A DNA stretch of 64,000 nt from Gemmatimonadota bacterium (GTDB taxonomy: Bacteria; Gemmatimonadota; Gemmatimonadetes; Gemmatimonadales; GWC2-71-9): NCBI GenBank assembly GCA_003222035.1, contig QHUS01000052.1, positions 6,003-70,002 of the forward strand, in the 5' to 3' direction. The number at the start of each line of letters is the position of its first letter. Within the stretch, counting starts at the first letter, position 1. The translations under genes were made by a program, and so were the position numbers. Below, one piece after another: positions 32,154 through 57,623 of the stretch. A model generated the notes under the pieces. The model saw only the letters and a program-made list of their open reading frames with translations. It was not told where the DNA came from and did not search any database.

Positions 32154-33017
32154 TCAGTTGCGCGGCGGCTCCTGTCCCTGGAGAGCCAGCGTGAGCGTGT
32201 CCTGACACTTCTTGCCCCAGGGGTTGAACTTGTTCGCCTTGAATCCCTCTTCCCACGATTGCTTCGCCCGATCCTGATCGCCCGCAAACCAGTAGGCGCG
32301 TCCCAGCTCGTAGTAGGCCTCGATCAGGTTCGGGCCGAGCTTGAGGGTCTTCTGGAAAAACGTCTGCGCGTCCTCGAACATCTCGCGCTGCAGGTAGACG
32401 AGCCCAAGGTAGAAGTGGGCGTACAGCGTCGCCTTCTTGTCGTTGTCGAGGCGGATCGCCTTCGAAAGGTGCTCGATGGCTTCGCCGAAGATGCGCTTCT
32501 TGAGGCAGATGTACCCGACGTTGATGCGGGCGAGGGAGTTGGCGGGCTCCTTCATGAGGACCTTCTGAAACGTGCCGAGCGCGTCGTCGTAGTCCTCATG
32601 CAGCATCTGGCCCCAACCGAGCAGCGACTCGGCCTGCGTCGCGCCGGGGGACAGCTGCAGCGCCTTCTGCAGCGCCTGGATCGCGCCGGCGTAGTCGCCG
32701 AGGGAGATGAGGCTCCATCCCTTTTCGATGAACGTGGACGCACCGATGTGGTCGGCGTGCACAGCGGGTCGCGTGCCGGTGAATTCGGGGGCCGACGCCT
32801 CGGCCGTGGAGGACGCGACCTGCTTGAAGCGCTCGACGAGCTTGCGGACGTCTTCCTTCAGCGCCGACAGCTCGGCAATCAACGCATCCACCCGCTTGAA
32901 GTACGCAATGATCTCGCGCTTCACCGCCTCGCGCTCCGCACCGCCGGTCACCGTGTCGAGGCGCCGCGCGATCTGCTCGTACTCGGCCCGGAGGGCCGGG
33001 AGCGGAGTCTCCGCCAT
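32154..33017 (-). CDS. coiled-coil plus TPR-repeat protein (last gene of the Che/Mgl string)
   Basis: MAETPLPALRAEYEQIARRL.., then TPR repeats (GDYAGAIQALQKALQLSP, YDDALGTFQKVLMKEP, FGEAIEHLSKAIRLD, FEDAQTFFQKTLKLGP). The start ATG overlaps the cheW stop by 1 nt. Confidence 0.8.
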   Translation of the reverse strand: MAETPLPALRAEYEQIARRLDTVTGGAEREAVKREIIAYFKRVDALIAELSALKEDVRKLVERFKQVASSTAEASAPEFTGTRPAVHADHIGASTFIEKGWSLISLGDYAGAIQALQKALQLSPGATQAESLLGWGQMLHEDYDDALGTFQKVLMKEPANSLARINVGYICLKKRIFGEAIEHLSKAIRLDNDKKATLYAHFYLGLVYLQREMFEDAQTFFQKTLKLGPNLIEAYYELGRAYWFAGDQDRAKQSWEEGFKANKFNPWGKKCQDTLTLALQGQEPPRN

Positions 33018-33493
33018 CACGCCTGTGCCGGTTCCCGAACCGCCGTCTCGAGCGCGAGCTTCTCCTTGGACGAGAGGAGACGCGCGGTGTTGAGCACGAT
33101 GATCGTTCGCCCGTCCTTCACGACCAGTCCCGTGATGTACTCCGCCGCGAGACCTTTCACGATGGTCGGCGGCGCCGAGATTTCGGGCGCCGCCACTTGC
33201 AGGACTTCGGTGACCGCGTCGACCACCACGCCCAGCCGTCCCCCCTCCCACTCCAGGATCGCGATCCGCGTCTCCTCACGCAGCGGCGCCGCGACGCCGA
33301 GACGCTTCCGCAGATCCACCAGCGGCACGGGGGCATTCTGATACCGCAGCACGCCTTCGAGAAAGTCCGGCGCCTTGGGGAGCGGCGCGGGCGCCTCATA
33401 GCGGAGAATCCGCTCGACCTGGAAGATGTTGAACGCCAGATCCTGACCGGCCACCTTGAAGGTGACGAGCTGGACGTCGTCGCCTGTCGTCAT
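33017..33493 (-). CDS. cheW: chemotaxis coupling protein CheW
   Basis: LVTFKVAGQDLAFNIFQVERIL..FLEGVLRYQNAPVPLVDLRKRLG..GVVVDAVTEVL. Confidence 0.9.
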   Translation of the reverse strand: MTTGDDVQLVTFKVAGQDLAFNIFQVERILRYEAPAPLPKAPDFLEGVLRYQNAPVPLVDLRKRLGVAAPLREETRIAILEWEGGRLGVVVDAVTEVLQVAAPEISAPPTIVKGLAAEYITGLVVKDGRTIIVLNTARLLSSKEKLALETAVREPAQA

Positions 33494-33918
33494 CCGATCT
33501 TATCTCCCAAGGCATCCAGGTCCAGGATCGGCACCAGGGTGCCGCGACGTCGGGCCACGCCGGAGGCCCAGGGCAGCGACTCGCCGTGCGGTACGGGCAG
33601 GGCACGCTCGCGTACCACGTCGTCGGCGTCGTCCACCTCGAACGCCACCTGGCGCGTGCCCCCGCCCTTTCCGCCGGGCCCCAGCTCCACGAGCACTGCC
33701 GCCCGTCCGCGCTCGGGTGGCGGCGTCCGCTCCCCCAGCAGCGCGCCGAGGTGCACGACGGGAACCAGGCGTCCCCGTAGCGGCGTGAGTCCGCGCATCG
33801 CGGGCAGGGCGCGGGGCACGGAGAGCACTTCGGCCAGGTCTCCGACCTCGAGCACGCGCGCAAGCGGGAGGCCATACTCCTTGCCGTCGACGCGGACCAG
33901 CAGGTAACCGCGGCTCAT
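33490..33918 (-). CDS. CheW-like protein (divergent)
   Basis: LLVRVDGKEYGLPLARVLEV..MRGLTPLRGRLVPVVHLGALLG..AFEVDDADDV; it overlaps the next cheW by 4 nt. Confidence 0.8.
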   Translation of the reverse strand: MSRGYLLVRVDGKEYGLPLARVLEVGDLAEVLSVPRALPAMRGLTPLRGRLVPVVHLGALLGERTPPPERGRAAVLVELGPGGKGGGTRQVAFEVDDADDVVRERALPVPHGESLPWASGVARRRGTLVPILDLDALGDKIG

Positions 33919-33964
33919 GGCTCGCGGCTGAAGCCGCGGCTCGGCCCTGCCGCTAAGGTGGCGC

Positions 33965-35077
33965 TCATTCTGCGCCCCGCACGTTCAATTTGGCTCCCCG
34001 TGCCGTCAGTTGGTCGACCACGCGCTCCGCGATCTCCCCCAAGGGGAAGACCGCGTCTACCCCGCCGATCTGCACGGCGGCCGTCGGCATGCCGGCGATC
34101 ACGGCGGAGGCGCGGTCCTGCGCGATGCCGCCGCCGCCCGCCGCGCGGATCGCGCGTACGCCGTCCGCGCCGTCGCGGCCCATGCCGGTGAGGACGACGC
34201 CGACCGCATGCGGGCCGAACACAAGGGCCACGGAGCGGAACAGTGGATCGGCCGCCGGGCGGACGCCCCAGATAGGCGGCTCCTGGTCGAGCGCGATCGC
34301 GGGGCCATCGGGCGCGCGGACCACCCGCATATGATAATCGCCCGGCGCGACGTACGCCGTGTCGGCGACCACGGGCGTGCCGTCGTCGGCCTCCACCACG
34401 TGGAGCTCGGACAGCGAGTCGAGGCGCTCCGCGAGGGACCGCGTGAAATTCGGCGGCATGTGTTGCACCACGAGCACGGCGGCGCCCCGCCCCGTCGGAA
34501 GCCGCGGGATCAACTCGGCGAGCGCGCGGGGGCCGCCGGTCGACGCGGCCACGGCCACGGCGAACTGGGCCCGCGGGCGGAGCCCCGCTTCGGGCACGCG
34601 GCGGGCGGGCACCGGTGGCCGGGCCATCACGGCGACGCGGGACACGTCGGCCGCGAGGGCGCGGCGCACCGCGGCGCGCAACTCGGGACCCATGCGCAGC
34701 AGCGCCGAGCGGTTCCCTTCGTCGGGCTTGGCGACGATCTCGACTGCGCCCAGCTCCAGCGCGCGGATCGCGGCACCGGTCCCGGGCCCCGCGTGCGCGC
34801 TGACCACCACGATCGGGCGCGGCGTCTCCGACATGATGTAGCCGATCGCGCCCAGGCCGTCGAGCTCGGGCATCTCGAGGTCCATGGTCACGACATCGGG
34901 ATCGAACTGATGCACCTTGCGGACCGCGTCGAATCCGTCGCGGGCGGTCCCCACGACGCGGAACTCGCCGTCCCCCGCGGTATTCGCGCCGCTCAGCACG
35001 TCGCTCAGCACGCGTCGCAGCAACGCGCTGTCATCCACGACGAGAACGCTCGGCCGCCGATCAGAGGACGGTGACAT
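33965..35077 (-). CDS. cheB: protein-glutamate methylesterase CheB (REC plus esterase)
   Basis: [27 protein letters not shown] (REC domain) and [26 protein letters not shown] (esterase domain). The start ATG 35075-35077 overlaps the cheD 3' end by 17 nt. Confidence 0.93.
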
Positions 35078-35582
35078 CGGCCCCCACCGAGCGAACCTCG
35101 ACCCGGCCGTCCCCCACATAGAACCGCACGGAGCGGCCGGACCCACCCCCCACCGCCTCCCGCATCACGGGGATTCCGATGCGACGCAGGACGTCGCGCG
35201 CGGCGACGATGTTCCGTTCGCCCATCTGCATGGAGCCCGGGGTCATGAGCTGGGCGAACATGCTCGCTCCGCCCGCGAGCTTGGCGATCAGGCGCCGCGG
35301 TTCGGCGCCGAGCCGCGTGAGCTCGTGCACCAGCAGCGGGACGGCCGTCTCGGGAAACTTCGCGGGGTTGGTCGCATCGCGTGCGAGGCTGCGCGACGGG
35401 AGCAGGACATGCGCCATCGCCCCGGCCCCCGCCTGCGGATCGTGCAGCATGATCGCGACGCAGGACCCGAGCCCCAGCGTCACGAGCACCGCGCTCCCGC
35501 GTTCGGCGGCCCACTCGGCCACCTTGACGATCCGCTCGGCGGGGGGGAGCGGGGAGGGGGCCGCCCCGTCGCCCGCCCTCAC
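35061..35582 (-). CDS. cheD: chemoreceptor glutamine deamidase CheD
   Basis: [60 protein letters not shown]. The start GTG 35580-35582 overlaps the cheR stop (GTGA). Confidence 0.88.
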
Positions 35583-36403
35583 GCGGGCGTCGCCTTCTGG
35601 TAGATCCGCTCGCGCGGCTCCTCCAGCCGGAACCGGTCCCGCGCGGGGCCGAACAACGTCTCCACCTTGCCGAGGAGCAGCAACCCTCCGGGCGCGAGGG
35701 TATCGGCGAACAGCGTGAACAGCCGTTCCTGCATCGGCCGGTCGAAGTAGATCACGACGTTGCGACACACGATCAGGTCGTAGGGCGCCGCGGGCGCCGG
35801 CTCGCTGGTGAGGTCGTGCTTGAGGACGCGCACGATCCGCTGCAGCTCCGGCACGGGGCGGCGCGGCGGCTCCGGGGTGAAGTAGCGGTGGACCAGCTCG
35901 GCCGGCATCTCGGTGAACGCCGCCTCGGGATACGCGGGTGCCCGGGTGCGCTCGAGACTCGCGCGGTCGATGTCGGTGGCATCGACCCGAGCCCGTCCCA
36001 GCAGCGCGGGCTGGCCCAGCCGGCGCGCCGTCTCGGCGAGCGCCACCGCCATCGTGTATGGCTCCTCCCCCGAGGCGCAGCCGGCGGACCAGGCGCGAAC
36101 CTCCCCGCGGCGCGCTTTCCAGAGTCCCTCGATCCACGGCGCCAGCGCGCGCCACGTTTCCACGTTGCGGAAGAACTTGGTGACGTTGATGGTGAGCGCG
36201 TCGAGCAGCAAATCGTACTCGAGCGCGTCCTCCTCCAGCAGCCGGCCGTAGTCGGCGAACGTGTGAACGCCGCGGGCCCGCATCCGCACCGAGATGCGAC
36301 GCCGCAGGCAGCGGTCCTTGTAGGAGTCGCAGGCGAGGCCCCGCGCCTGCGTGATCTTGCGCGTGAGCGCCCGGAACGCCAGTTCGTCCTGCTCCGACTT
36401 CAC
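35579..36403 (-). CDS. cheR: chemotaxis protein methyltransferase CheR
   Basis: LTINVTKFFRNVETW..VRAWSAGCASGEEPYTMA..IVCRNVVIYFD. The start GTG 36401-36403 overlaps the upstream stop (GTGA). Confidence 0.9.
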   Translation of the reverse strand: MKSEQDELAFRALTRKITQARGLACDSYKDRCLRRRISVRMRARGVHTFADYGRLLEEDALEYDLLLDALTINVTKFFRNVETWRALAPWIEGLWKARRGEVRAWSAGCASGEEPYTMAVALAETARRLGQPALLGRARVDATDIDRASLERTRAPAYPEAAFTEMPAELVHRYFTPEPPRRPVPELQRIVRVLKHDLTSEPAPAAPYDLIVCRNVVIYFDRPMQERLFTLFADTLAPGGLLLLGKVETLFGPARDRFRLEEPRERIYQKATPA

Positions 36404-38016
36404 GACAGCGCGCTCAGGGTGTCCAGATTGGCCTTGACGAGCTCGTGCTTCGGATTGATCTCGAGCGCCTTGCGCCACAGCTGCGCCGCGAGCTCACGGT
36501 TGTTCCGCTTGTACGCAATGTTCCCGAGCTTGAAGTAGACGTCGTCGCCCAGCTCGGGCGCCAGCTCGACCGCCCGACTGTACGCGTCCCAGGCCTCGTC
36601 GTAGCGCGACCCGCGATAGGCCAGGTCGCCGAGATTCTTGGACAGCTGGGGGAGCGACGGCTCGTTCTTGCGCGCCGCCCGCACCAGGTCCTCCGCGCCT
36701 GTCAGATCGCCGGACAGCTCCTTCAGCACGGCGAAGTTGTTCTGCAGCGCGGCGTGCGAGGGATAGGCCTCCACTCCGTCCTCGGCCAGCTCCTCGGCCT
36801 GCTCGAATTCGCCGGCGCCCGCCGCCGCGAGGGAGCGCGCCCAGAACCAGGCGGGCGGGGGCGCTTGTCCGAACAGCTCGCGTGCCCGGTCGAGCCGCCC
36901 GGCGGCGCCGCCGTAGTCACCGCGCTTGAGCGCGACCACGCCCCAGCCGAGATACACTTTGGCATCGGTCCGCGCCCGGGCAGCGGCTTCGGCGTAGGCG
37001 GCCTCCGCCTCGTCCAGCCGCCCCAGCTGCTCGTATGCGAACCCCAGGTTGTGGAACACCGCGGGCCGCCCGCCGCCCTTCTCCGCGGCGAGGCGTAGCG
37101 CCTCCATGGCCTCGCGCCACCGGGCCTGCTTCAACGCCACCAACCCGATGTAGAAGTGGGCACTCGCGTCGCTGCCGCGCAGCTCCGCCACGCGCCGGAA
37201 CTCCCGCGTGGCTTCGTCGAGCATGCCCGTCTTGTAAAACGCCACGCCCAGGTTACGGTGCTCTTCGACGCGCGCGTCGGTAATCTCCGCATCCGCCCCC
37301 GTGGTCGTGCGCCCGGCGCGGTGCACGAACCCCGCCGTGATCAAGCCGTACAGCGCCTTCCCGATCTCGAACTCGCCCAACCCCGAGTCTTCGATCACCT
37401 GGTTCACGTCGCGCGACGCGTCGAGCAGCGGCAGGAGGCGTTGTTGCGCATCCGTGAGTTGGCTTTCGCTGATCGCGATCCGGTCCTTGTCTACGACGAA
37501 GATCAGGTCGAATGACGGGATCTTTTTTTCGATCAGGCTCCATTCGTCCACCCGGCGGGCGCCCTCGAGCAGCAGCGATTCCGGGTTGATCGAGACGAGG
37601 AAATCCTGTGGCCCCGGGCGGACGTCGGCCTCGAAGTTGAAGGTCCCCTGCGTCCACGTGAACAGGTAATAAACCGACTCCTCGATCTGCACGCGCATGT
37701 AGCGCTCGAGATCTCCCTGCGTGATCACCCCCATCGCGACCAGGACCTCGCCCAGCCTCTTGCCGTGCTCCTTGGTCTGCCGGTGCACGGCCACGTCGAG
37801 CTGCTCCTGGGTGATCTTGCTGTGCTTCACGAGGATGTCGCCCAAGCGGTCGCGTCGGTTCACGATCGACGCGTAGCAGATGCGCCCCTTCTCGAAGTAG
37901 ATGTAGCCGAAGTTCGAGCGGTCGGCGATGGACAGGCATCCCGTCTTCTGCCCGAGCGCCAGGAGCTGGAGCACGTCGGGGAGGGACGCTTCCTTGAGCG
38001 AGCCCTTGATGGCCAT
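36400..38016 (-). CDS. PATAN(DUF4388)-like domain protein with MshEN-like helical insert and C-terminal TPR repeats (paralog 1)
   Basis: [49 protein letters not shown] (DUF4388/PATAN signature), tandem RLGxxLV..G.I....L......Q motifs, and at least 6 TPR-like repeats. The start ATG 38014-38016 overlaps the upstream stop by 1 nt. Confidence 0.8.
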   Translation of the reverse strand: MAIKGSLKEASLPDVLQLLALGQKTGCLSIADRSNFGYIYFEKGRICYASIVNRRDRLGDILVKHSKITQEQLDVAVHRQTKEHGKRLGEVLVAMGVITQGDLERYMRVQIEESVYYLFTWTQGTFNFEADVRPGPQDFLVSINPESLLLEGARRVDEWSLIEKKIPSFDLIFVVDKDRIAISESQLTDAQQRLLPLLDASRDVNQVIEDSGLGEFEIGKALYGLITAGFVHRAGRTTTGADAEITDARVEEHRNLGVAFYKTGMLDEATREFRRVAELRGSDASAHFYIGLVALKQARWREAMEALRLAAEKGGGRPAVFHNLGFAYEQLGRLDEAEAAYAEAAARARTDAKVYLGWGVVALKRGDYGGAAGRLDRARELFGQAPPPAWFWARSLAAAGAGEFEQAEELAEDGVEAYPSHAALQNNFAVLKELSGDLTGAEDLVRAARKNEPSLPQLSKNLGDLAYRGSRYDEAWDAYSRAVELAPELGDDVYFKLGNIAYKRNNRELAAQLWRKALEINPKHELVKANLDTLSALS

Positions 38017-39980
38017 CAGCGAAACTCCTCGATCATGCGGTCCGCCACGTCGATCCAGTCCCAGACCATCTTCTCGCGACTCTTGACGCCTCCGAGGCTC
38101 GAGACCACGAGACCGCTGGTGCGAAACCCGCTGGAGCGTCGGCTGTCGCGCGGCGCCTGGCCTTCGAGCACTTCGCGCGCGAGGCCCGCCGAGACAGGCC
38201 GCCCATCCTGGGCGGCCCCCGCCTCGATCACGCGCTGGATCAGGCCCACGAGGCCGCGCACCGAGTCGGCGGGCCGGTCGGCGAGGTAGTCGATCAGCGC
38301 CGGTTCCGGGGTCACGCCCTGCTGCGCCAGCAAACGCTCGAGCACGGCGCGCCTCACGTCGCGGTCGGGCTCCTTGATCTCCGCCACCAGTCCGCCCTCG
38401 AGGCGCGACACGATGCGCTCCTCGATCCCGACCAGCGTATTGGGATGCGCCGGCGCCGTGAACACGAGCTGGCGATCCTTGTCCTGGAGCAGGTTGAACA
38501 GGTTGAACAGCTCTTCCTGTGTCCGTTCCTTGCCGGTCAGCAGATGGATGTCGTCGAGCAACAACGCCGTGGCTCGGCGGTAGCGGGCGCGCCACCAGTC
38601 CACGCGGTTGCCGTCGATCGCGCCGATCAGCTCGTCGATGAACGCCTGGGTGGAGAGGCACGCCACGACGGCGCGGCGGCCGCGCGCCAACTCGAGCCCG
38701 ACCGCGTTGAGCAGGTGCGTCTTGCCGAGCCCGCTCTTCCCGACGAGGACGAGCGGGTTGTACTTCTTCCCCGGCCGCTCGAGCACGGCCCGGGCCGCGC
38801 TGACCGCGACCTGGTTCGACGGGCCCACGGCGTACGCGGCGAGCGGAAACGCCGCTGACGGCCCGGGGGGCGGCGCGGCCCCATCCCGGACCTTCGTAGC
38901 GGCCTGCTCCGCCTCCTGCAGCCGCTCGGGGTCTCGGAACACGCTGTCGCCGGCGGCCTGGGGGTCGAGCTCCCCCACCTCCGCCTCGAGCGCTTTGAGG
39001 CGCTCGACGTCCTCCGCGAACCCCGCGATGGCCTCGTCCACCGCAGTTGGCGCGTCCTGCTGCAGGAGCGCCTCGAGCCGATGCGTGCGGTATCCCTCGC
39101 CTTCCCACCGCAGCACGGCTTCGCCCACCCGAGCGCGCCACGCTTCGACGGCTTTTCCGACGGTGACGGTCACGTCGGCGAGGAATTGTCCGAACTCGTC
39201 CCCGCCGGCCGCGGCGGCCGGGACGGGCCCGGCCTTCTCCGCCGCCCCCTTTGCCCGCTGCGCGTCGAGCCCCAGGATCCGTTTGACCGTCTCCGCGTTG
39301 ATCGAGGTATCGTGGACGGCCTGGAACGCCACGAGCCGGTTCAACGCGCCCATCAACTCGCGCACGTTGCCGAGCTCGGCTTGCGCCACGGTCTCGAGTA
39401 CGCCGGGGTCGAACCGCGCGCCCCGCTCTTCGGCCTTCCGCCGCAGAATCGCCACGCGGGTTTCGTACTCGGGCGTCGCGATGTCCACCACCAGCCCGCC
39501 CGACAGCCGGGAGATCAGCCGCTCGTCGAGATCGGCGATCTCGGCGGGCGGGCGATCGCTCGTCAGGACGATCTGGCGCCCCGCGGCCTGTAACGCCTCG
39601 GTGAGCCGCAGCAGCTCCGACTGCATCTCCTTGCGGTTCGTCAGGAATTGCACGTCGTCCACGAGGAGCACGTCCACGTTCTGGAAGCGGCGACGGAACG
39701 CGTCACCCTGTCCCGCCGCCACGCTCGCGTGGAACGCTTCGACGTACTCGTCGAGCGTCAGGTACTCGATGTTCAGCGCGGGTGCCGCCTTCTTGGCGGC
39801 GTGGCCGATCGCCATGAGGAGATGCGTCTTGCCCAGACCCGGGCCGCTATAGACGAACAGCGGGTTGTATGCCGCGCCCGGGCTCTCGGCCACGGTGCGG
39901 CCCGCCGTGACGGCCAGCCGGTTCGCGGCGCCCACGACGAACGTGTCGAAGGAGTACTTCGGGTTGAGCGCGCTCGTCAT
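38016..39980 (-). CDS. tandem DnaA-type AAA+ ATPase (two DnaA domain-III-like modules; no DnaA domain I/II or DNA-binding domain IV)
   Basis: Module 1: [78 protein letters not shown]. Module 2: [66 protein letters not shown]. The start ATG overlaps the mglA stop (ATGA). Confidence 0.8.
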
Positions 39981-40576
39981 GCCGTGGTCCCGGCGGCGAG
40001 CCTTTTGAGCACCAGCTCGGAGATGCCCTTGAGTGTCTCGAACACGCCCTTCCCGTGCAGCGCGTCAGCGCTGAAGCTCGGGACTCCCCGGAAATTGAGC
40101 GCGTCGTCCAGATCGGACGCCGAGAGGATCAGCTCGCGCGGCAGGTCCTGCTTGTTGTACTGCAGGACCAGCGGAACGGTGCGGATGTCCACGCCGTGCT
40201 CCAGCAAATTGCTCTGCAGGTTCTGCAGGCTCTCGAGGTTCTCATCGAGCTGGCGCGCCTGACTGTCGGCGACGAACACGACGCCGTCGGCCCCCTGGAG
40301 CACCAGCCGGCGCGTGGCGTTGTAGTAGACCTGGCCGGGGACCGTGTAGAGCTGAAACCGCGTCGCGAATCCCGAGATCTGCCCCAGGTCGATCGGCAGA
40401 AAGTCGAAGAACAGGGTGCGGTCGGTCTGCGTGGCCAGGGAGACCATGCGTCCCCGACGCGAGTCCGGGACGCGGCCATAGATGTAGTGCAGGTTCGTCG
40501 TCTTGCCAGACCGCCCCGGCCCGTAGTAGACGATTTTGCACGTGATCTCGCGCGTCGTGAAGTTGACCAGAGACAC
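39977..40576 (-). CDS. mglA: Ras-like small GTPase MglA
   Basis: [77 protein letters not shown] is collinear with, and highly similar to, Myxococcus MglA as I recall it. Confidence 0.92.
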
Positions 40577-40580
40577 GGGG

Positions 40581-41051
40581 CTATCTCCCGAAGAGCGTGT
40601 TGAGACTGGCGCTCAGCTCGCGCTCGAAGTCGGCCGCGAGCACCTGCTTCGGCACGCTGTCTTTGGGGCTCGCCGCCTGCAGATCGGCGGCGAGCTGCTC
40701 AAAGAATAATTGCACCAGGCCGAGCGACGAAACCTCGAGATCGTACACGACCAGCGCCACCAACCGGCCGCGGCCCGTCGCGACTGCCGCCAGGAAGATC
40801 CCGTGCCGCTCACCCTGATGGTTCAACGCGGCGAACGGCGGTTGACCCATCTGCCGCGCGATCTCGTCGGTGGATGCGACGATCGCCGCCCCGAGCGCCG
40901 CCGCTGACATCACGTCCACGGCGCGCGAGAATCCGTGCTGCGCCAGCACCTGGCCCGCCGACGTCATGACCAGCACGAGCCGCGCGCTCGCTTCCTTCAC
41001 GAACTTGACCAGCGGCTCGAGGGTCCAGTTTTCGACGGCGCGCGTCGTCAT
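40581..41051 (-). CDS. mglB: Roadblock/LC7 protein, MglB-like (putative MglA GAP)
   Basis: 156 aa, immediately upstream of mglA (4-nt gap). [52 protein letters not shown] parallels the MglB roadblock fold. Confidence 0.8.
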
Positions 41052-41407
41052 CCGACCACCTCCCCCGCCCGCAGCAGCTCCAGCCGCACGAGGCCGACGT
41101 TCACGTCCGGCTCCGCGACCGCCACGACGAGGGTCCCGCCGGCGGTCGGAACCACCAGCAACGCGCCCTGCTCGGCCTGCAGGTGCCAGAACAGGCTCGC
41201 GCCGACGCCCGCGGCTTCCATCGCGCGGCGCAACCGCGTGGCGAGGCTCGCCGCGAGCGCCGCGACCGCGGGTCCCTTGATCCCCTCCATGAGCTGCTCC
41301 GCCACGATGATCCCGTCGTCGGCGGAGACGAGCATCGCTCCCCGCACGCCGCGCACGCGCGTGACGAGGTCGAGCGCCCGCGTATAATTCGCCGGCGCGG
41401 TCGTCAT
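41048..41407 (-). CDS. Roadblock/LC7 domain protein (second)
   Basis: 119 aa. VRGVRGAMLVSADDGIIVAEQL..AVAALAASLATRL..ALLVVPTAGGTLVVAVAEPDVNVGLVRLELLR. It overlaps both neighbours with ATGA junctions. Confidence 0.75.
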   Translation of the reverse strand: MTTAPANYTRALDLVTRVRGVRGAMLVSADDGIIVAEQLMEGIKGPAVAALAASLATRLRRAMEAAGVGASLFWHLQAEQGALLVVPTAGGTLVVAVAEPDVNVGLVRLELLRAGEVVG

Positions 41408-42288
41408 GCGTGCTTCTCCAGCCAGCGGCGCGCCGCCACGGCCGCGCGCTGGGCGATGATCGCCAACCGTCCCATCGGGACGGCGCGGTCGCGCACGACG
41501 AGCAGCAGCGCGTCGCCCGTGGGCGCGGTCAGATGGACATGTCCGCCGTTGCCCTCCGCCGCAACACCGGTCCACCGTCCCAGAGCCAGCAGCTTGGCCG
41601 TCCGCGCCGCCTCCTGGGAGACGCCGGCGAGGTACGCGGCGACGGCGTCGGTCACGTCCTTGCCCCCGGGGTCCTTGAGCGCTCCGCCGAGCACCCGCCC
41701 CGCCGCGTCGAGCAACAGAAGCCCCTCCTGTGCTCCCTCGAGCCCGGCGAATACGCGGGCCTCCTCGAGAGGCTGGGCCGCCCCGGGGGGTCGGGGGGGG
41801 GGTGGAGGCGCGCGCTCGGTGGGAGCGTCGGAGGCCGGCAGCGCGACGGGCTCCCCCTCGCCCTCGGGGGCGGTGGGGCTAGGGGGGGATTCGCCGCCGC
41901 GCGCCATCGCGAGGGCTTGCGCGATACTCGCATCGGCCGGCGCCACGCGCTGCGCCGCCTCCAGGTGTGCGGCCGCCTGTGCCAGGTCGCCCACCTTGAA
42001 ATAGAGGAAGGCGAGCCCCTTGAGCGCGCCGACGTGGTCAGGAGCGATGCGCAGCGCCATGTCCCACTCGTCGAAGGCGCGCTCGTAGTCGTGCTTGTCT
42101 GCGAGGATGCGCGCGAACAGGTCGTGCGCGTCGGGGAGGTGGGGGTGACGGTCCAGGCCCGTCACGGCCACCCGCTGCGCGGCGTCGAGCTGGCCCTTCA
42201 TGCGCAGCAGCTCCCCCAGGCGCAGGAACACGAGGCTGTCCGGATCCTGCGCCAACTGCGAGGAGAGGGTCTTGATCTCTTCAGCCAT
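41404..42288 (-). CDS. TPR - Pro-rich linker - Roadblock/LC7 fusion protein
   Basis: N-terminal TPRs (SLVFLRLGELLRMKGQLDAA.., DAHDLFARILADKHDYERA.., ALKGLAFLYFKVGDLAQA), a PPPPPRPPG linker, and a C-terminal roadblock-like GLLLLDAAGRVLGGAL..DAVAAYLAGVSQEAART..ALLLVVRDRAVPMGRLAI. Confidence 0.7.
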   Translation of the reverse strand: MAEEIKTLSSQLAQDPDSLVFLRLGELLRMKGQLDAAQRVAVTGLDRHPHLPDAHDLFARILADKHDYERAFDEWDMALRIAPDHVGALKGLAFLYFKVGDLAQAAAHLEAAQRVAPADASIAQALAMARGGESPPSPTAPEGEGEPVALPASDAPTERAPPPPPRPPGAAQPLEEARVFAGLEGAQEGLLLLDAAGRVLGGALKDPGGKDVTDAVAAYLAGVSQEAARTAKLLALGRWTGVAAEGNGGHVHLTAPTGDALLLVVRDRAVPMGRLAIIAQRAAVAARRWLEKHA

Positions 42289-43438
42289 GCGTCGAGTTCC
42301 CCGTGCCCGCCAAGGTCTGGGCGGCGGCCTTGGCGCGGTGCACGGCGTCGCTCTGCGCCAGCTCCGCTTCCGAGTGCGCGGCCAGGCGCTCCCACTGGTC
42401 CCACTGCTCCACGGCCTCGCCGAACCGCCCGGTGGCGGCGAGGGCGTAACCGAGGATGCGGTGCGCGGCGACGCTCAAGGGGTCGAGCCGAAGCGCCCCG
42501 CGCAACTCTTCCACGGCGTCGGCAGCGCGTCCCCCGGCGAGCGCGATGCGGCCCAGCAGCAGGTGCACGTCGGGATCATGGGGATGCACGCCCGCCGCCT
42601 GCTCGGCCAGGCTACGCGCTTCCTCCAGGTCGCGCCGCCGCAGCGCGTCTTCCGCGCGCGCCACGAGCGCCGCCAGATCGGCGGCGAGCGTGGTGTGCTC
42701 GCGCTTGGTCGTACCGGGGTCGGAGAGCACGATCACCCCGGCGCTCTCGAGCCCGAACAGGGTCTTGGCGACGTCGAACTCCGAGCGTCCCAGGTCGGAG
42801 GCGATGGCCCGCACGTCCCGCGCGCCGTTGATCATCGCGAGCATCTCCCACTCGGGCGGTAGCAGGTCGAGCCCGCCCTCGACGCCTCCCTGGGGCGGGG
42901 CGAGCGTGGGCACGACGCCCAGGTGGGGAATGCGGCCCTCGATACGGGACCACTCGTCGATGCGCCGCGCGCCTTCCATCAGCAGCGCCTCCGTGGGAAT
43001 GCGCACGGTGGCGTCCGCCGGCACCTCGTCGGGCAGGCCCTCGGTGAACGAGAAGTAGCCTTCGCGCCAGCTCATGACCTCGAAGACGACCTCTTCGATC
43101 TGGAATCGCACCTGGCGCTCGAGCTCGCGGCGCGTGAGGGCGCCGATCGCGACGAGGATCTCGCCCAGGCGGCGTTTGTCGCCCTGGCGCAGCTGCATGT
43201 CGCGCGCGCGGTGGATGTCGGCCTCGCCGATCTTGCCGGTCCGCAGCAGCAGCGCGCCGATCGGATGGGGGTTCGAGCGAATCTCCGCGGCAATGATGGC
43301 GCCGCCCTCGAACGAGATCATGCCCGCGTTGTTGCGGAGCTCGGAGGTGACACGCAGCGCCCCGGTCTTCCGGCTCAGGTCGAGCAGCTGGAAGACATCG
43401 TGGATACCGAGCTCGCGGAGCGGGCCTTCGATCGGCAT
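42281..43438 (-). CDS. PATAN(DUF4388)-like domain protein with MshEN-like insert and TPR repeats (paralog 2)
   Basis: MPIEGPLRELGIHDVFQLLDLSRKTGALRVTSELRNNAGMISFEGGAIIAA, then RLGEILVAIGALTRRELERQVRFQ, and C-terminal TPRs. The architecture matches 36400..38016. Confidence 0.8.
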   Translation of the reverse strand: MPIEGPLRELGIHDVFQLLDLSRKTGALRVTSELRNNAGMISFEGGAIIAAEIRSNPHPIGALLLRTGKIGEADIHRARDMQLRQGDKRRLGEILVAIGALTRRELERQVRFQIEEVVFEVMSWREGYFSFTEGLPDEVPADATVRIPTEALLMEGARRIDEWSRIEGRIPHLGVVPTLAPPQGGVEGGLDLLPPEWEMLAMINGARDVRAIASDLGRSEFDVAKTLFGLESAGVIVLSDPGTTKREHTTLAADLAALVARAEDALRRRDLEEARSLAEQAAGVHPHDPDVHLLLGRIALAGGRAADAVEELRGALRLDPLSVAAHRILGYALAATGRFGEAVEQWDQWERLAAHSEAELAQSDAVHRAKAAAQTLAGTGNSTHG

Positions 43439-43452
43439 GGGGGGGGGCTGGC

Positions 43453-46149
43453 CTAATCCGAGGCGAAGATGTGTTGCAGGTCGACGGCGGTGCGCGCGTG
43501 CGCGCGCGCCGCCTGTGCGAACGCGCCAGCGGGGTCGATGCGCGTCACTTTCCCCCACGCCTGCACCGCCTCGTCGTAGCGGTGCAGGCGCGCGAGCGCC
43601 ACGCCGAGCTGAAACAGCGCTTCCACCTGGTCGGGGTCGAACTTGAGCGCGCGCTGGAACGCCTCGAGCGCCTGGGCATCGCGCTTGTCGTCCAGCAGGG
43701 TACGCCCGAGCAGCAGCAGCGCCAGCAGATCGTACGGGTCCTGCTCGAGCATCTCTGCGAGTCGCACGACGGCCTGGCGGTGGCGCCCGGAGCGCCGCAG
43801 CAGGTCGGCCAGCGCCAGCCCGGCCTCGTGAAAGGTCGGCAACGCATCGAGGGCGCGCTCGTAGGCGTCCTGGGCGTCGCGCCACGCTTCCTTGTCCTCG
43901 TGCAGCCGGCCCAGGTCGAGCCAGACCTGGATATAGCCGCGGTCGAGCTCGAGCGCGGACCGGTACGCGGCGAGCGCCCCCGCCTTATCGCCGACCTTGA
44001 GGGCGACGTCGCCCTGCAACTTGTGGAGGTCGGCGCGCCCAGGCGCGCGGGTCTGCGCCCGCTGCAGCGCGACGAGAGCTCCGGCGGCATCGCCTGCCGC
44101 CGCCCGCCCTTTGGCCGCGGCGACGAGGGCATCCACGTTCTCCGGTGCGAGCGCCAGCAGTTCCTCCGCCAGCCCGCGCGCCTCGTCGCCACGCGGGCCG
44201 CCCAGGGCGAACAACGCCTTGACCTCCCCGAGGCGCGCGTCGGCGCGGTCGGGTTCGAGCCCCCGGACCTCGCGGTAGCGCTCGAGCGCCTCGCCGTGCA
44301 GGCCCCGCTTCGCGAAGATGTCGCCCAGCAGCACGCCGGCGTGGGCGCGGCTGGCACCCCGCTGCACGGCGCGCACCGTCTCGGCCGCGGCGACATCCAG
44401 CAGGCCCTTGCTCACGTAATCGCGCGCCAGCGCGAGGGGATCGTCGGCGGACTTGGCGGTTGGCGACTCCGCGGCGGCAACCGCCGGCGCCAGGTCCTGA
44501 AAGATGTTGTCGAGCAGCCGCTCGTCGAAGGTGAAGTCCTCGCCGATCGTCTCGGCCGTCACGTCCGCCGAAATCTCGGGCGCGATGCCGATCGTGCCCT
44601 TCTCGTACTGCAGGTCGATGGTGAGGGCGAACTTCTGTGAGACGTAATAGGGATCGAGCTCGAGCGCCCGTTTTGTGGCGCGCAACGCGCCGTCGAAGTC
44701 GCCCAGGTTGGACAGGGTGAAGCTCAGGTTGTAGTGCGCGCCCGCGTGGTGCGGGTCCACCTCGACGGCGCGCACGAAGGCGTTGCGCGCGTCCTGAAAG
44801 CGCTTCAGCTCCACGAGCACCAGCCCCACGCCGTTCCACGCCGGCGCGGAGCTGGCGTCGCTCGACAGGACCTGGCGGTACGCTTCCAGCGACAGTTGGA
44901 AGCGGCGCAGTTGAAACAGCAGCAGGGCCAGGTTGAGGCGCGCGGCGGTGAACGTCCCCTGGAGCCGCAGCGCGGTCCGGAACGACTCGATCGCGGTGTC
45001 GGCGTCTTTGCCCGAGGCCTGGACCACGCCGAGGTTGTTCCACGCCAGCGCGTACTTCAGGTCCACCTCGACCGCCTGGCGGTACGAGGCGACCGCCTGC
45101 GTCGTGCGGCCCGCCTGGTGCAGAACGACGCCGTGCTCGTTCCAGAGCTTGGGCGAGTCGGGGACTTCGCGGAGCAGCGTTTCGTACAGCTCCAGGGCGG
45201 CCGGGAAGTCGCGCTTCAGGAGGTGAACCTCGGCCGTCGCCTGCAGCGCGAGGCGCCGATCCTCGCCGCGCTCGAGCCCGAGCCGGTATTCGCGCAGTGC
45301 CTCGTTATAGTAGCCCTTCTGCCGGAACGCGAGCCCGAGATTGTAGTGGGCCAGCGCGTTGCCCTCCACCACCTGCGGCTCGGGCGCCAGGCGCTGGCGC
45401 CGCTCCTGCATCTTGCGCTCGGCGTTGTAGCGCTCGAGCGAGAGGTTGGTCTGTGCCCGGGCGAGCGGCGGGTTGAGCTCGATGGCGCGCTTGGAGGACG
45501 CACGCGCCTCCTGATGCCGGCCCATGTCGCCCAGCACGAACGCCATCAGGTAGTGGGCGTTGGCGTTGTCGGGGTTCAGCTCCACGGCGCGCTCCAGGGC
45601 GGCGAGCGCCTCCGTGTTCAACCCGCGATTGTAGTAGATCTCGCCGAGGTAGAAGTGCACGACCGTGGACTCGGGCTCGAGTTCGACGGCGCGCGCGAAC
45701 CAGTCGGTCGCCGCCTCGGGACGGCCCCGGTTCTTTTCCGCGAGCCCGAGCTGGATGATCGCGGCCACATCCTTGGAGCGGTGGGCCAGCAGCTGCTCGA
45801 ACTCTTTGACCGCGTCATCGTGCGCGCCGAGGATCGCGTAGGCGCGTCCCAGCTCCCAGCGGGCGTCGCGGTCGTCGGGCGCCTGGCGGAGGCGCTCGCG
45901 CAACTGCGCGACCCGACGGTCGTAATAACCCGTGTCGTGATAGGCGATCTCGAGGTTGCGCTGCGCGACCTGCATCTTCGGATCGAGCTCGAGCGCGCGC
46001 GTGAACGCCCCGATTGCCTCTTCGACGAGGCCCTTCTGGTAGTAGAGAACGCCGAGATTGTTGTGCGCCCCGGCGTCCGACGGATCGATCCGGCGCGCGA
46101 AGGATCGGAGGACGGCGAGGTCGCGTTCCGAGAGCGCCGGCGCCGTCAC
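43453..46149 (-). CDS. large TPR-repeat protein (898 aa)
   Basis: About 20 consecutive TPR units (e.g. AHNNLGVLYYQKGLVEEAIGAFTRALELDP, VHFYLGEIYYNRGLNTEALAALERAVELNP, AWNNLGVVQASGKDADTAIESFRTALRLQ). Confidence 0.85.
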   Translation of the reverse strand: MTAPALSERDLAVLRSFARRIDPSDAGAHNNLGVLYYQKGLVEEAIGAFTRALELDPKMQVAQRNLEIAYHDTGYYDRRVAQLRERLRQAPDDRDARWELGRAYAILGAHDDAVKEFEQLLAHRSKDVAAIIQLGLAEKNRGRPEAATDWFARAVELEPESTVVHFYLGEIYYNRGLNTEALAALERAVELNPDNANAHYLMAFVLGDMGRHQEARASSKRAIELNPPLARAQTNLSLERYNAERKMQERRQRLAPEPQVVEGNALAHYNLGLAFRQKGYYNEALREYRLGLERGEDRRLALQATAEVHLLKRDFPAALELYETLLREVPDSPKLWNEHGVVLHQAGRTTQAVASYRQAVEVDLKYALAWNNLGVVQASGKDADTAIESFRTALRLQGTFTAARLNLALLLFQLRRFQLSLEAYRQVLSSDASSAPAWNGVGLVLVELKRFQDARNAFVRAVEVDPHHAGAHYNLSFTLSNLGDFDGALRATKRALELDPYYVSQKFALTIDLQYEKGTIGIAPEISADVTAETIGEDFTFDERLLDNIFQDLAPAVAAAESPTAKSADDPLALARDYVSKGLLDVAAAETVRAVQRGASRAHAGVLLGDIFAKRGLHGEALERYREVRGLEPDRADARLGEVKALFALGGPRGDEARGLAEELLALAPENVDALVAAAKGRAAAGDAAGALVALQRAQTRAPGRADLHKLQGDVALKVGDKAGALAAYRSALELDRGYIQVWLDLGRLHEDKEAWRDAQDAYERALDALPTFHEAGLALADLLRRSGRHRQAVVRLAEMLEQDPYDLLALLLLGRTLLDDKRDAQALEAFQRALKFDPDQVEALFQLGVALARLHRYDEAVQAWGKVTRIDPAGAFAQAARAHARTAVDLQHIFASD

Positions 46150-46152
46150 GGG

Positions 46153-46770
46153 TCAGCTCAGGCGGATGGCGTCAAAGATGGCCTTGAGCGACGCCAGATC
46201 GGGGAGCAGCAGGAAGTCGCCCCGCAGCCCGTCCCCCGCGTCGATCTGCAACTCGGTCTCGACGCAGAACACGAAGTCGCGCTCGTGCCCGAAATTCAGA
46301 TAGGTGGTCGTGAGCACCGCCGCCGCCAGGTCCACCACGAGGCTCGGGACGGAGGGCAGCAGCAACATCCCCATGAAGTCCGAGAGCGCATTCAGGTACG
46401 CACCCGCCAGGATGTTGCCCGCCTCCTTGAGACAGGACTGCTCCAGCGCGTCGTACACGGCGGTCGTGCCGATGGGCCGGCGCAGCAGCATGTCGCACAG
46501 CCGGCGGCCCGCCGACTCGGGGAACAAGAGCAGCGTGCGCCCCGTCAGATCCCCCAGCATGTGCATCAGGACCGCCGCCACCACGTCCTGCGGATTGCCC
46601 AGCAGGTCGGGGACCTCTTCGAGGCGCGCGATGTTGATCTGCGGCACGCTGATCATGATCCGGCAGTTCGTGAGCTGCGACAGGGCGGTGGCGGCGTGAC
46701 CGGCGCCGATGTTCGCCACCTCGCGCAACGCGTCGATCTGCCGCTCCTTGAGATCCCGCACGTCCTCCAT
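46153..46770 (-). CDS. cheC: CheY-P phosphatase CheC
   Basis: IDALREVANIGAGHAATALSQL and a second EAGNILAGAYLNALS half-site (the CheC/FliY duplicated motif). Confidence 0.88.
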   Translation of the reverse strand: MEDVRDLKERQIDALREVANIGAGHAATALSQLTNCRIMISVPQINIARLEEVPDLLGNPQDVVAAVLMHMLGDLTGRTLLLFPESAGRRLCDMLLRRPIGTTAVYDALEQSCLKEAGNILAGAYLNALSDFMGMLLLPSVPSLVVDLAAAVLTTTYLNFGHERDFVFCVETELQIDAGDGLRGDFLLLPDLASLKAIFDAIRLS

Positions 46771-46786
46771 TGCGCCTCCGCTCGCC

Positions 46787-48682: not shown

Positions 48683-48686
48683 GTGG

Positions 48687-49049
48687 TCAGCCGAGCACGC
48701 GCTGAACGGCCTCGAGCACGCGCGATGGCTGGAACGGCTTCACGACGAAGTCCTTCGCGCCGGCCTGGATCGCCTCGACGACGAGGGCCTGCTGGCCCAT
48801 CGCGCTGCACATGAGAATCTTCGCGTCGGGATCCTGCTTGACGATCTCGCGCACCGCGTCGATCCCGCCCATGTCCGGCATCACGATGTCCATGGTGACG
48901 AGATCGGGCTTGAGTTGGCGGTATTTCTCGACGGCCTGCGATCCCGTTTCGGCCTCGCCCACCACCTCGAAGCCGGCTTGCGCCAGGATGTCGCTGATCA
49001 TCGTCCGCATGAAGATGGCGTCGTCGCAGACGAGGACAGTGTGGCTCAC
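48687..49049 (-). CDS. cheY: response regulator CheY
   Basis: 120-aa single REC domain: VLVCDDAIFMR..LVTMDIVMPDMGG..KDFVVKPF. Confidence 0.92.
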   Translation of the reverse strand: MSHTVLVCDDAIFMRTMISDILAQAGFEVVGEAETGSQAVEKYRQLKPDLVTMDIVMPDMGGIDAVREIVKQDPDAKILMCSAMGQQALVVEAIQAGAKDFVVKPFQPSRVLEAVQRVLG

Positions 49050-56822: not shown

Positions 56823-57623
56823 TCAGCTGGCTGGTGCCGTAACTCGTTCGCCACCTTCGAGGTGCGAGATCGCGCCGGACAGGAGGTCGCGCACCTGCGG
56901 CGCGCTCAGGTGGCGATGCAGCAGCCCGTGACTCGCCACGGAGATCGTCGAGGTCTCCTCGGAGACGACCAGGACGGTGGCGTCGGTCTCCTCGGAGAGC
57001 CCGAGCGCCGCGCGGTGACGCGTACCGAGGGACTTGTCCGCCACCTTGAACTGCGTGAGGGGCAGGACGCAGCCGGCGCCGATGATGCGGTCGCCCCGCA
57101 CCAACACGGCGCCGTCGTGCAACGGAGAGTAAGGCGTGAAAATCGTCGTCAGGAGGTCGGCGGACACCTTGGCCTCCATCGGCACGCCGGACGAGATGAA
57201 TTCTTCCAGACCGATGTCGCCTTCCACGGCGATGATGGCGCCCGTGCCGCCGCGCGACAGGCGGTCCAGCGCTTCGGCGATCTCTTCGGCGACCGATTGC
57301 CGCTCGCTCTGCGAAAACCGACGCATGAAGCGGGACTGGCCCAGCCGGGCGAGGGCGTTCCGGAGCTCGGGCTGGAACACGACGACCGCCGCGAACGCGC
57401 CGAAGGTGAACACGTACGACAGCAGCGCGCTGATCATGGTGAACTTGGCGAGCAGCGCGCCGAAATACGCGACCGACAGGATCATCACGCCGACGACGAT
57501 CTGCATCGCCCGCGTGCCGACGAGGAACAGGAGGAAACGGTAGATGACGAACGCGACGAGAATGATCTCGACCACGTCCGGCCAGAACCGCGGGATGAGG
57601 AACTGGTAGGCTTCGAGGTTCAC
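56823..57623 (-). CDS. cdaA: diadenylate cyclase CdaA (c-di-AMP synthase)
   Basis: Three N-terminal TM helices followed by a DAC domain (GAIIAVEG..PLHDGAVLV..GTRHRAALGLSEETDATVLVVSEETSTIS). The start GTG overlaps the folP stop (GTGA). Confidence 0.9.
   Translation of the reverse strand: MNLEAYQFLIPRFWPDVVEIILVAFVIYRFLLFLVGTRAMQIVVGVMILSVAYFGALLAKFTMISALLSYVFTFGAFAAVVVFQPELRNALARLGQSRFMRRFSQSERQSVAEEIAEALDRLSRGGTGAIIAVEGDIGLEEFISSGVPMEAKVSADLLTTIFTPYSPLHDGAVLVRGDRIIGAGCVLPLTQFKVADKSLGTRHRAALGLSEETDATVLVVSEETSTISVASHGLLHRHLSAPQVRDLLSGAISHLEGGERVTAPAS

Follow-up and report, generated by a model that had tools for sequence, protein, structure and literature searches.

A predicted c-di-GMP-binding, MshEN_N-type insert in a PATAN-TPR adaptor of a Che-MglA/MglB gene cluster

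The PATAN1 gene and its neighborhood

The 64-kb stretch of DNA analysed here (the window) carries a Che-MglA/MglB gene cluster that includes two PATAN-TPR paralogs, PATAN1 and PATAN2:

33017..36403, minus strand: downstream part of the cluster, with CheR, CheD, CheB, CheW and CheW
36400..38016, minus strand: PATAN1, a 538-aa PATAN(DUF4388/PatA_N)-winged-helix-like-TPR adaptor (ORF, translation, Pfam)
38016..39980, minus strand: tandem DnaA-type AAA+ ATPase, 654 aa, the upstream neighbor, translationally coupled to PATAN1
39977..40576, minus strand: MglA-type small GTPase (Pfam Arf and TIGR00231 small_GTP matches; synteny)
40581..42288, minus strand: three Roadblock/LC7 (MglB-like) genes, the last one fused to TPR (Pfam Robl_LC7)
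42281..43438, minus strand: PATAN2, a 385-aa PATAN-TPR paralog (ORF, Pfam)
43453..49049, minus strand: upstream part of the cluster, with a TPR protein (898 aa), CheC, CheA and CheY

Synteny of the cluster extends to 80 genomes, and the DnaA-type ATPase gene is syntenic in every locus reaching it. The small GTPase resembles Myxococcus xanthus MglA in sequence, and the Roadblock/LC7 genes give a weak match to the MglB profile NF052242.

The PATAN1 translation begins MAIKGSL; its start and the stop of the upstream gene overlap in TGATG, as do its own stop and the CheR start in GTGA. Membership in the PATAN family is clear (Pfam PF14332, 135.4 bits against a gathering score of 25, E 1.4e-39). A Pfam search found no Response_reg (REC) domain in the protein, whose C-terminus is instead TPR, so that it is not a PatA-type response regulator. 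Its parts are as follows:

37849..38016, minus strand: PATAN core, N-terminal part, residues 1-56, strand-helix-three strands (Pfam DUF4388 profile positions 1-~50; AlphaFold (AF2) model)
37777..37848, minus strand: motif I, residues 57-80, with predicted helices a1 (58-64) and a2 (70-82) (translation, profile, AF2)
37759..37776, minus strand: spacer TKEHGK, residues 81-86 (translation)
37687..37758, minus strand: motif II, residues 87-110, with predicted helices a3 (88-94) and a4 (100-119) (translation, profile, AF2)
37507..37686, minus strand: PATAN core, C-terminal part, residues 111-170 (second Pfam DUF4388 stretch; AF2)
37309..37506, minus strand: winged-helix-like subdomain, residues 171-236 (AF2 secondary structure; Foldseek match to winged helix 2yu3, prob 0.97)
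36412..37278, minus strand: TPR array, residues ~247-535 (Pfam TPR_1/2/8/11/12/14/16/19 matches)

Motif, profile matches and predicted fold of the insert

The initial annotation had placed a tandem pair of MshEN-type motifs at 37687-37848, as residues 57-110 of PATAN1, and minus-strand translation reproduces exactly these 54 residues: RLGDILVKHSKITQEQLDVAVHRQ-TKEHGK-RLGEVLVAMGVITQGDLERYMRVQ. MshEN_N is defined by two copies of RLGxx(L/V/I)(L/V/I)xxG(L/V/I)(L/V/I)xxxxLxxxLxxQ with a spacer of about 5 residues, an arrangement that PATAN1 has, with a spacer of 6 residues as against 5 in MshE. Motif II departs from the strict consensus solely, and conservatively, by M for L at position 21, just as had been described; for motif I the serine at position 10 had been correctly noted, and two further departures, K11 and V21, had been overlooked. 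Wang et al. (2016) also give a relaxed pattern, which every motif position fits except K11. Across the six frames of the window this 24-residue pattern occurs twice, as against 0.095 expected from shuffles, both times in the PATAN paralogs, and the tandem form occurs once, as against none in 200 shuffles.

The curated NCBIfam profile for the MshE-related c-di-GMP motif (NF053729.1) aligns over its full length (1-53 of 53) with residues 57-110, at 55.8 bits (cutoff 38; E 2.9e-15), or 57.8 bits when a 240-aa fragment of PATAN1 is searched; there are weaker local matches of the insert to the profiles for NfrB and EpsG, both MshEN proteins. Among PDB sequences, phmmer finds PilF (6f8l, 4.4e-7), MshE (5htl, residues 6-63 aligned with PATAN1 54-112, 1.1e-5) and PilB (5zfr/6olj/5tsg, ~9e-5). 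Pfam PF05157 (T2SSE_N), the search originally proposed, has no match at E<=10 to either the whole protein or the 54-residue segment. Since that model spans the whole two-subdomain MshEN/T2SSE_N and only the N-terminal subdomain occurs in PATAN1, the miss is not taken as a refutation; with the C-terminal subdomain absent, the insert is no full MshEN/GSPII domain.

In the AF2 model of PATAN1 (pLDDT 87.8) the four helices of the insert lie between strand 45-52 and a core helix, the position of the PATAN "alpha-clip". Close relatives were found that lack exactly the 54-residue segment, with their residue ~56 joined directly to the C-terminal part of the PATAN core, so that the insert appears as a discrete accessory module; the model and these relatives bear out the earlier placing of the motifs in an alpha-helical PATAN insertion. 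The insert is predicted to be a compact four-helix bundle superposable on ligand-bound MshEN_N: Foldseek matches the model to 5htl, 8pdk and 9gl5 with prob 1.00 and rmsd 1.1-1.6 Å, including 1.5 Å over 56 columns (36% identity) for MshE with c-di-GMP (5htl) and 1.1 Å for PilF GSPII-B with c-di-GMP (8pdk). In the model a loop precedes a1, which starts at L58, as in c-di-GMP binders, and a4 is continuous with a PATAN core helix.

The corresponding insert of PATAN2 (residues 59-113, window 43100-43264), PIGALLLRTGKIGEADIHRARDMQ-LRQGDKR-RLGEILVAIGALTRRELERQVRFQ, is degenerate and at 27.1 bits falls under the NF053729 cutoff. Its motif I has P at the first position and R at the 21st, both conserved in 53 orthologs.

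Conservation of the motif positions

In 79 Gemmatimonadales orthologs of PATAN1 the invariant positions are R57, G59, L62, L73 and Q80 in motif I and [KR]87, G89, L103 and Q110 in motif II; G89 and Q110 are also invariant across 37 diverse PATAN relatives. Mean entropy in the orthologs is 0.23 bits at the ligand-contact positions (1, 2, 3, 17, 21 and 24 of each repeat), 1.07 at the x positions, 1.94 in the turn, whose glycine is not conserved, and 1.49 in the spacer. The residues expected to contact the ligand are thus selectively conserved within the insert. The PATAN core has an entropy of 0.21-0.28 bits, however, and the entire N-terminal domain is strongly conserved, so that the hydrophobic motif residues may be conserved for structural reasons. 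The identification of the tandem motif as MshEN-type stands on several kinds of evidence: curated profile, PDB sequence matches, predicted fold, position-specific conservation and the literature.

Possible c-di-GMP binding and its alternatives

Three groups of characterized proteins offer comparisons. MshEN_N of Vibrio cholerae MshE (5HTL; PMC5013675) has the same tandem RLGxxhhxxGhhxxxxLxxxLxxQ repeats forming a four-helix bundle, and the PATAN1 insert (34-36% identity, model rmsd 1.5-1.6 Å) retains all of its ligand-contact positions; besides the spacer and residue differences already given, PATAN1 lacks the MshEN_C/T2SSE_N1 subdomain and the ATPase, and carries the module inside another domain rather than at the N-terminus. 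Alone or fused to unrelated domains, MshEN_N bound c-di-GMP at ~0.5 uM or better (PMC5013675). PilF GSPII-B/C of Thermus thermophilus (PMC11731258, PMC12002112) has the same bundle, and GSPII-C, a c-di-GMP binder of nanomolar affinity, shares K11 with PATAN1 motif I; unlike PATAN1, the GSPII domains belong to a pilus/DNA-uptake ATPase. The PatA-type regulators PixG, PixE and PilG of Synechocystis (Han et al. 2021/2022) have PF14332 with a two-repeat helical insert in the same place, and share motility, MglA/MglB and che neighbors with PATAN1, which ends in winged-helix and TPR regions rather than in a REC receiver. The pilus motor PilB/PilC is a binding partner of PATAN-REC proteins, and PATAN is a known neighbor of MglA/MglB.

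The reading we favor, and consider reasonably probable, is that residues 57-110 form a true MshEN_N-type module, predicted to bind c-di-GMP and to give the polarity/motility module one more modulatory input. This alpha-clip, a four-helix bundle of two 24-residue repeats that interrupts PATAN in a cytoplasmic PATAN-winged-helix-TPR adaptor, would most likely hold one extended c-di-GMP monomer between the repeats, as in MshE and PilF GSPII-B/C. Because the last bundle helix runs into the PATAN core helix, we infer that the ligand would stiffen or re-orient the PATAN/TPR scaffold, altering the partners held. Partners and output are conjectural: candidates are CheR and the DnaA-like ATPase, both translationally coupled to PATAN1, MglA/MglB, or a pilus motor. 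The second messenger would be an added input at the level of adaptor or output, with no substitution for chemoreceptors. MapZ, a small PilZ adaptor that tunes chemotaxis through the methyltransferase CheR1 in Pseudomonas aeruginosa on binding c-di-GMP (PMC6370697), may offer a functional analogy, the gene for the predicted PATAN1 receptor being translationally coupled to cheR; the folds are unrelated.

One alternative is that the likeness to MshEN_N arose by chance in a helical, Leu/Arg-rich protein, the 70% GC of the window enriching R, L, G and A. It is so improbable that we reject it in view of the profile E-value, the shuffles that never produced the tandem pattern, the independent PDB matches, the close superposition and the retention of the motif across thousands of relatives. 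A more serious alternative, though still a doubtful one, is that the insert is homologous to MshEN_N and serves as a ligand-independent protein-interaction surface, the motif residues merely maintaining the bundle; it could then mimic the N-terminus of a PilB/GspE-type ATPase and compete for one partner. A shared or competing partner of the alpha-clip was proposed by Han et al., and the cyanobacterial literature treats the alpha-clip as a possible interaction surface only; in the literature searched, no paper reported c-di-GMP binding by a PATAN insert. Moreover, a consensus motif is insufficient: helix capping and contacts between subdomains keep PilF GSPII-A from binding with near-consensus motifs, and even after every consensus residue has been put back (PMC12002112); by analogy, the PATAN context could occlude the predicted pocket. 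The unconserved turn glycine points the same way, as does the census of Wang et al. (2016; PMC5013675), with one MshEN protein in Nostoc PCC 7120 and three in Synechocystis (1-3 per cyanobacterial genome): Synechocystis has six PatA-type PATAN-REC regulators (Han et al.), which suggests that the alpha-clips there were not judged binders. Binding is favored by R57, Q80, [KR]87 and Q110, which would touch the ligand, add little to packing and are invariant or K/R-only in the 79 orthologs; by the wider invariance of G89 and Q110; by a profile score well over the curated cutoff; and by the finding that all MshEN_N-only constructs tested by Wang et al. bound c-di-GMP.

The initial annotation went further, proposing that c-di-GMP may take the place of an MCP in supplying the Che/MglA module with its sensory input. 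A regex scan of the window for MCP, GGDEF, EAL, HD-GYP and PilZ signatures found no MCP signature, nor was one found among the gene calls of one syntenic locus; the sole GGDEF string falls within a linker of the DnaA-like protein, where a GGDEF domain is absent. The arrangement without an MCP is kept in 80 loci, and the overlap of PATAN1 with CheR could also be cited in support of such a replacement. The conserved cluster nonetheless includes CheR, CheB and CheD, which modify MCPs, and two CheW and a CheA-CheW fusion, which couple receptors, so that receptors encoded elsewhere are to be expected; MCP genes commonly lie apart from che operons. This part of the proposal is therefore not supported, and sensing by PATAN1 as the primary input in place of an MCP seems very unlikely. 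Also unlikely is a broader scheme in which alpha-clips are a class of c-di-GMP receptors, PATAN1 gates CheR and/or the DnaA-like ATPase-MglA, and the MCP-less cluster is driven mainly by the second messenger.

How widespread might such an input be, if PATAN1 does bind c-di-GMP as we favor? The 235-residue N-terminal region of PATAN1 is matched by 15,095 cluster representatives, and the motif is present in 33 of the 37 diverse relatives sampled. It thus appears to be generic to PATAN inserts, an outcome that the initial annotation had listed against its own claim; it lowers the novelty and is no argument against binding. M. xanthus MXAN_3211, a PATAN-domain protein according to other literature, is among the MshEN proteins predicted to bind c-di-GMP by Wang et al. 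(2016, Suppl. Tables 3-4), whose listing also has MshEN_N fusions to CheA and CheX; this protein and the "MshEN_N-only" architectures belong to another phylum and have other partners, binding there is predicted, and MXAN_3211 is likened to PATAN1 by description. According to Han et al., the alpha-clip had been tied to secretion-ATPase N-termini in 2006 (Makarova et al.). With this homology, the portability of MshEN_N and a PATAN protein among predicted binders already published, the PATAN1 locus is a good test case and no new principle. If binding is true, c-di-GMP would act directly on a PATAN/TPR adaptor that belongs to an MglA-MglB-Che polarity module, and many of the thousands of insert-bearing PATAN proteins would be receptors, easing the long-standing shortage of these relative to cyclases; it would also be worth asking again whether c-di-GMP controls the PATAN regulators of pilus polarity in cyanobacteria and myxobacteria.

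A profile search for distant relatives brought little further diversity, returning mostly the same Gemmatimonadota orthologs, all named "DUF4388 domain-containing protein."

Tandem MshEN-type repeats and predicted fold

Residues 57-110 of a 538-residue PATAN-winged-helix-TPR protein (PATAN1) read RLGDILVKHSKITQEQLDVAVHRQ TKEHGK RLGEVLVAMGVITQGDLERYMRVQ on minus-strand translation, as in the initial annotation; the placement is from ORF calling and translation:

36400-38016 (-): PATAN1 ORF
37687-37848 (-): PATAN1 insert; copy 1 (residues 57-80), linker (81-86), copy 2 (87-110)
42281-43438 (-): PATAN2, a 385-residue PATAN-TPR paralog in the same cluster
43100-43264 (-): PATAN2 insert

Copy 2 keeps the strict MshEN consensus save for the L-to-M change at position 21 already noted, but copy 1, described as deviating only at S10, departs from it at S10, K11 and V21; the spacer is six residues. 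A chance origin is ruled out for the PATAN1 motif by comparison with shuffled sequence: the relaxed 24-residue pattern of Wang et al. has two matches in six frames of the 64-kb window (0.095 expected), both falling in PATAN1 and PATAN2, and the tandem pattern has one, against none in 200 shuffles.

Pfam assigns DUF4388 (now PatA_N, the PATAN domain; 1.4e-39) to PATAN1, followed by many TPR families. The Pfam profile proposed as a check on the motif, PF05157 (T2SSE_N/MshEN), finds no match in PATAN1 even at E<=10. NCBIfam NF053729 ([quoted passage not shown]; curated cutoff 38 bits) spans residues 57-110 with profile positions 1-53 of 53 (55.8 bits, E 2.9e-15), and there are weaker local matches to NfrB and EpsG, which are known to carry MshEN. 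Among PDB sequences, residues 1-235 match by phmmer only the N-termini of pilus/secretion ATPases.

Residues 1-240 were modeled with AlphaFold2 from 73 homologs (mean pLDDT 87.8). The model has a strand-helix-three-strand unit (3-52), four insert helices (58-64, 70-82, 88-94, 100-119), the last of which runs on as the PATAN core helix, one more strand and helix, and a winged-helix-like unit (171-236). Foldseek aligned the insert to three ligand-bound PDB structures, each with probability 1.00; so short an alignment yields weak E-values (0.03-0.3).

Matches of PATAN1 in the PDB
Foldseek, MshE with c-di-GMP (5HTL): rmsd 1.5-1.6 Å, 56-58 columns, 34-36% identity
Foldseek, PilF GSPII-B with c-di-GMP (8PDK): rmsd 1.1 Å
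Foldseek, PilF GSPII-B Q190E mutant with c-di-GMP (9GL5): rmsd 1.5 Å
phmmer, T. thermophilus PilF: 4.4e-7
phmmer, V. cholerae MshE (5HTL): 1.1e-5, PATAN1 54-112 to 6-63
phmmer, PilB (5ZFR, 6OLJ, 5TSG): about 9e-5

Homology of the insert to MshEN_N, the c-di-GMP-binding N-subdomain of MshE, in both sequence and predicted fold, is thus close to certain. The whole model has no PDB match at E<=0.001. Its PATAN core and winged-helix unit (residues 1-56 and 111-236; window 37849-38016 and 37309-37686) weakly match chains of complexes that contain GATOR1 (E 0.015-0.08, probability 0.5-0.85, TM about 0.27), which we take to be the Nprl2/Nprl3 subunits, of longin/roadblock plus winged-helix architecture; these matches hint that PATAN may have a longin/roadblock-like GTPase-regulator fold.

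Conservation and spread of the insert

PATAN1 orthologs are encoded in 80 Gemmatimonadales genome loci (71-93% identity over residues 1-235; 79 distinct sequences) and are named by NCBI only as "DUF4388 domain-containing protein." The c-di-GMP contacts are positions 1, 2, 3, 17, 21 and 24 of each repeat (Wang 2016, PMC5013675; Neissner 2025, PMC12002112). None of the 79 sequences has a substitution at R57, G59, L73, Q80, G89, L103 or Q110; residue 87 is always K or R, residue 77 only I or V, and residue 107 only M or I. Mean entropy is 0.23 bits at contact positions, 1.07 at x positions, 1.49 in the linker and 1.94 at turn positions 10-11, so the consensus "G10" is not conserved here; Glu is the most frequent residue at position 66, which suits a place in the turn and not one in contact with the ligand. 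At the level of sequence, then, every ligand-contacting residue is shown to be kept, under stronger constraint than its neighbors.

When all 1.84 billion cluster representatives were scanned with HMMER, 15,095 proteins passed E<=1e-3, of which 551 also passed E<=1e-30. In the best 150 of the 15,095, almost every full-length sequence has the tandem RLG...Q/RLG...Q at about residue 57. NF053729 is matched at E<=7e-10, roughly its cutoff, by 33 of 37 diverse relatives (35-62% identical to PATAN1), in line with the reservation in the initial annotation that the motif might be a generic feature of PATAN inserts and not special to PATAN1. G89 and Q110 never vary in the alignment of these 37, and repeat 2 has decayed in some sub-lineages (QLGRILV, NLGQILV, RVSKLLV). 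Some close relatives (P0171, P0208, P0221, P0224, P0237, P0251) lack the insert: "...ASIVNR" is linked to "...VY.LFTWT" by about six residues, with 54 residues absent. The insert is therefore a discrete, optional module, and by these alignments one gained or lost within the PATAN1 family.

The PATAN2 insert scores 27.1 bits with NF053729, under the cutoff. Its repeat I has P at position 1 and, at position 21, R; the 53 orthologs of PATAN2 keep both. Since PilF GSPII-C, which is binding-competent, likewise has P at position 1, PATAN2 is not certainly non-binding; in studies of binding it would be a natural internal control.

c-di-GMP and the Che/MglA module

The MshE region corresponding exactly to the PATAN1 insert binds c-di-GMP, and MshEN_N, alone or fused to other domains, does so with an affinity of about 0.5 uM or better; >10,000 proteins of many architectures, CheA and CheX fusions among these, carry the 53-residue motif (Wang et al., 2016, PMC5013675). 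The supplement to that paper includes, among predicted M. xanthus binders, MXAN_3211, a PATAN-domain protein per a later paper. Makarova et al. (2006), as recounted by Han et al., linked the alpha-clip (the alpha-helical insert of PATAN domains) to secretion-ATPase N-termini, and PATAN genes adjoining mglA/mglB have been noted earlier (Han et al. among the sources); no paper stating or testing the PATAN insert as a c-di-GMP site was found in the open-access literature. Motif integrity looks necessary but is not sufficient, since PilF GSPII-A does not bind even with all six deviating residues set to consensus, attributed to helix capping and inter-subdomain contacts (Neissner et al., PMC12002112). 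PATAN1 helix 1 begins at L58 after a loop, and so has no extension like the site-blocking GSPII-A helix. We predict that the PATAN1 insert probably binds c-di-GMP.

The matched records place the organism in the Gemmatimonadales. Gene order is identical in all 80 loci as far as each extends, and an independent gene call concurs:

33017-49049 (-): complete che set (CheY, CheA, CheC, CheR, CheD, CheB, two CheW), no MCP gene; set among the che genes are those for MglA, three Roadblock/MglB-like proteins, the two PATAN-TPR paralogs and several further TPR proteins
Order, start: CheA, CheC, TPR protein, PATAN2, TPR-Roadblock, Roadblock, Roadblock, MglA
Order, continued: tandem DnaA-type ATPase, PATAN1, CheR, CheD, CheB, CheW, CheW
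Order, end: TPR protein, MA-type peptidase-like protein, TPR protein
38016-39980 (-): 654-residue protein with two DnaA-type AAA+ modules (Pfam Bac_DnaA twice, 2.4e-99)
~39206 (-): literal GGDEF string in its inter-module linker

CheY lies ahead of CheA in the window, and the whole cluster lies between rluD/lspA/ileS and the dcw cluster. The interleaved arrangement, without an MCP gene, is kept across 80 genomes. The PATAN1 start overlaps the DnaA-like stop (TGATG) and its stop the CheR start (GTGA).

If the insert takes one extended c-di-GMP, occupancy could shift the geometry or dynamics of the PATAN-winged-helix-TPR scaffold, helix 4 being continuous with the PATAN core helix, and hence its partners. 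One candidate is CheR, given its translational coupling to PATAN1 and the analogy of the PilZ adaptor MapZ, which works via CheR1 (PMC6370697); others are the DnaA-like ATPase, MglA/MglB, and a pilus motor, prompted by the binding of PilB and PilC by PATAN-REC proteins (Han et al.). Any particular partner is much less likely than c-di-GMP binding itself.

Does c-di-GMP replace chemoreceptors as the module's input, as initially proposed? No MCP signature occurs in the 64-kb window or in one syntenic locus. CheR, CheB and CheD modify MCPs, however, and CheW and CheA-CheW fusions couple to them; since the cluster conserves all three modifying genes, two CheW and a CheA-CheW fusion, unlinked receptors are the simpler expectation, and replacement seems quite improbable. 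An added, modulatory c-di-GMP input is the better reading.

The insert is real, correctly recognized and biologically sensible, a further instance of an already cataloged portable module. One operon with intact and degenerate paralogs, together with the insert-less relatives, makes a clean test case that could settle whether PATAN alpha-clips are generally c-di-GMP receptors.

It is unusual for a motility/polarity operon to include a DnaA-like ATPase. The gene, translationally coupled to PATAN1, lies between mglA and PATAN1 in every one of those loci, among the 80, that extend to that point; TIGR00362 matches the protein only over profile positions 101-336, and neither DnaA domain I nor DNA-binding domain IV is present. 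The GGDEF string belongs to no GGDEF domain and so could mislead a motif-only scan. A separate gene shows that the organism makes c-di-AMP:

56823-57623 (-): CdaA-type diadenylate cyclase (Pfam DAC 1.3e-38, plus CdaA_N), adjoining folP, with divIVA nearby
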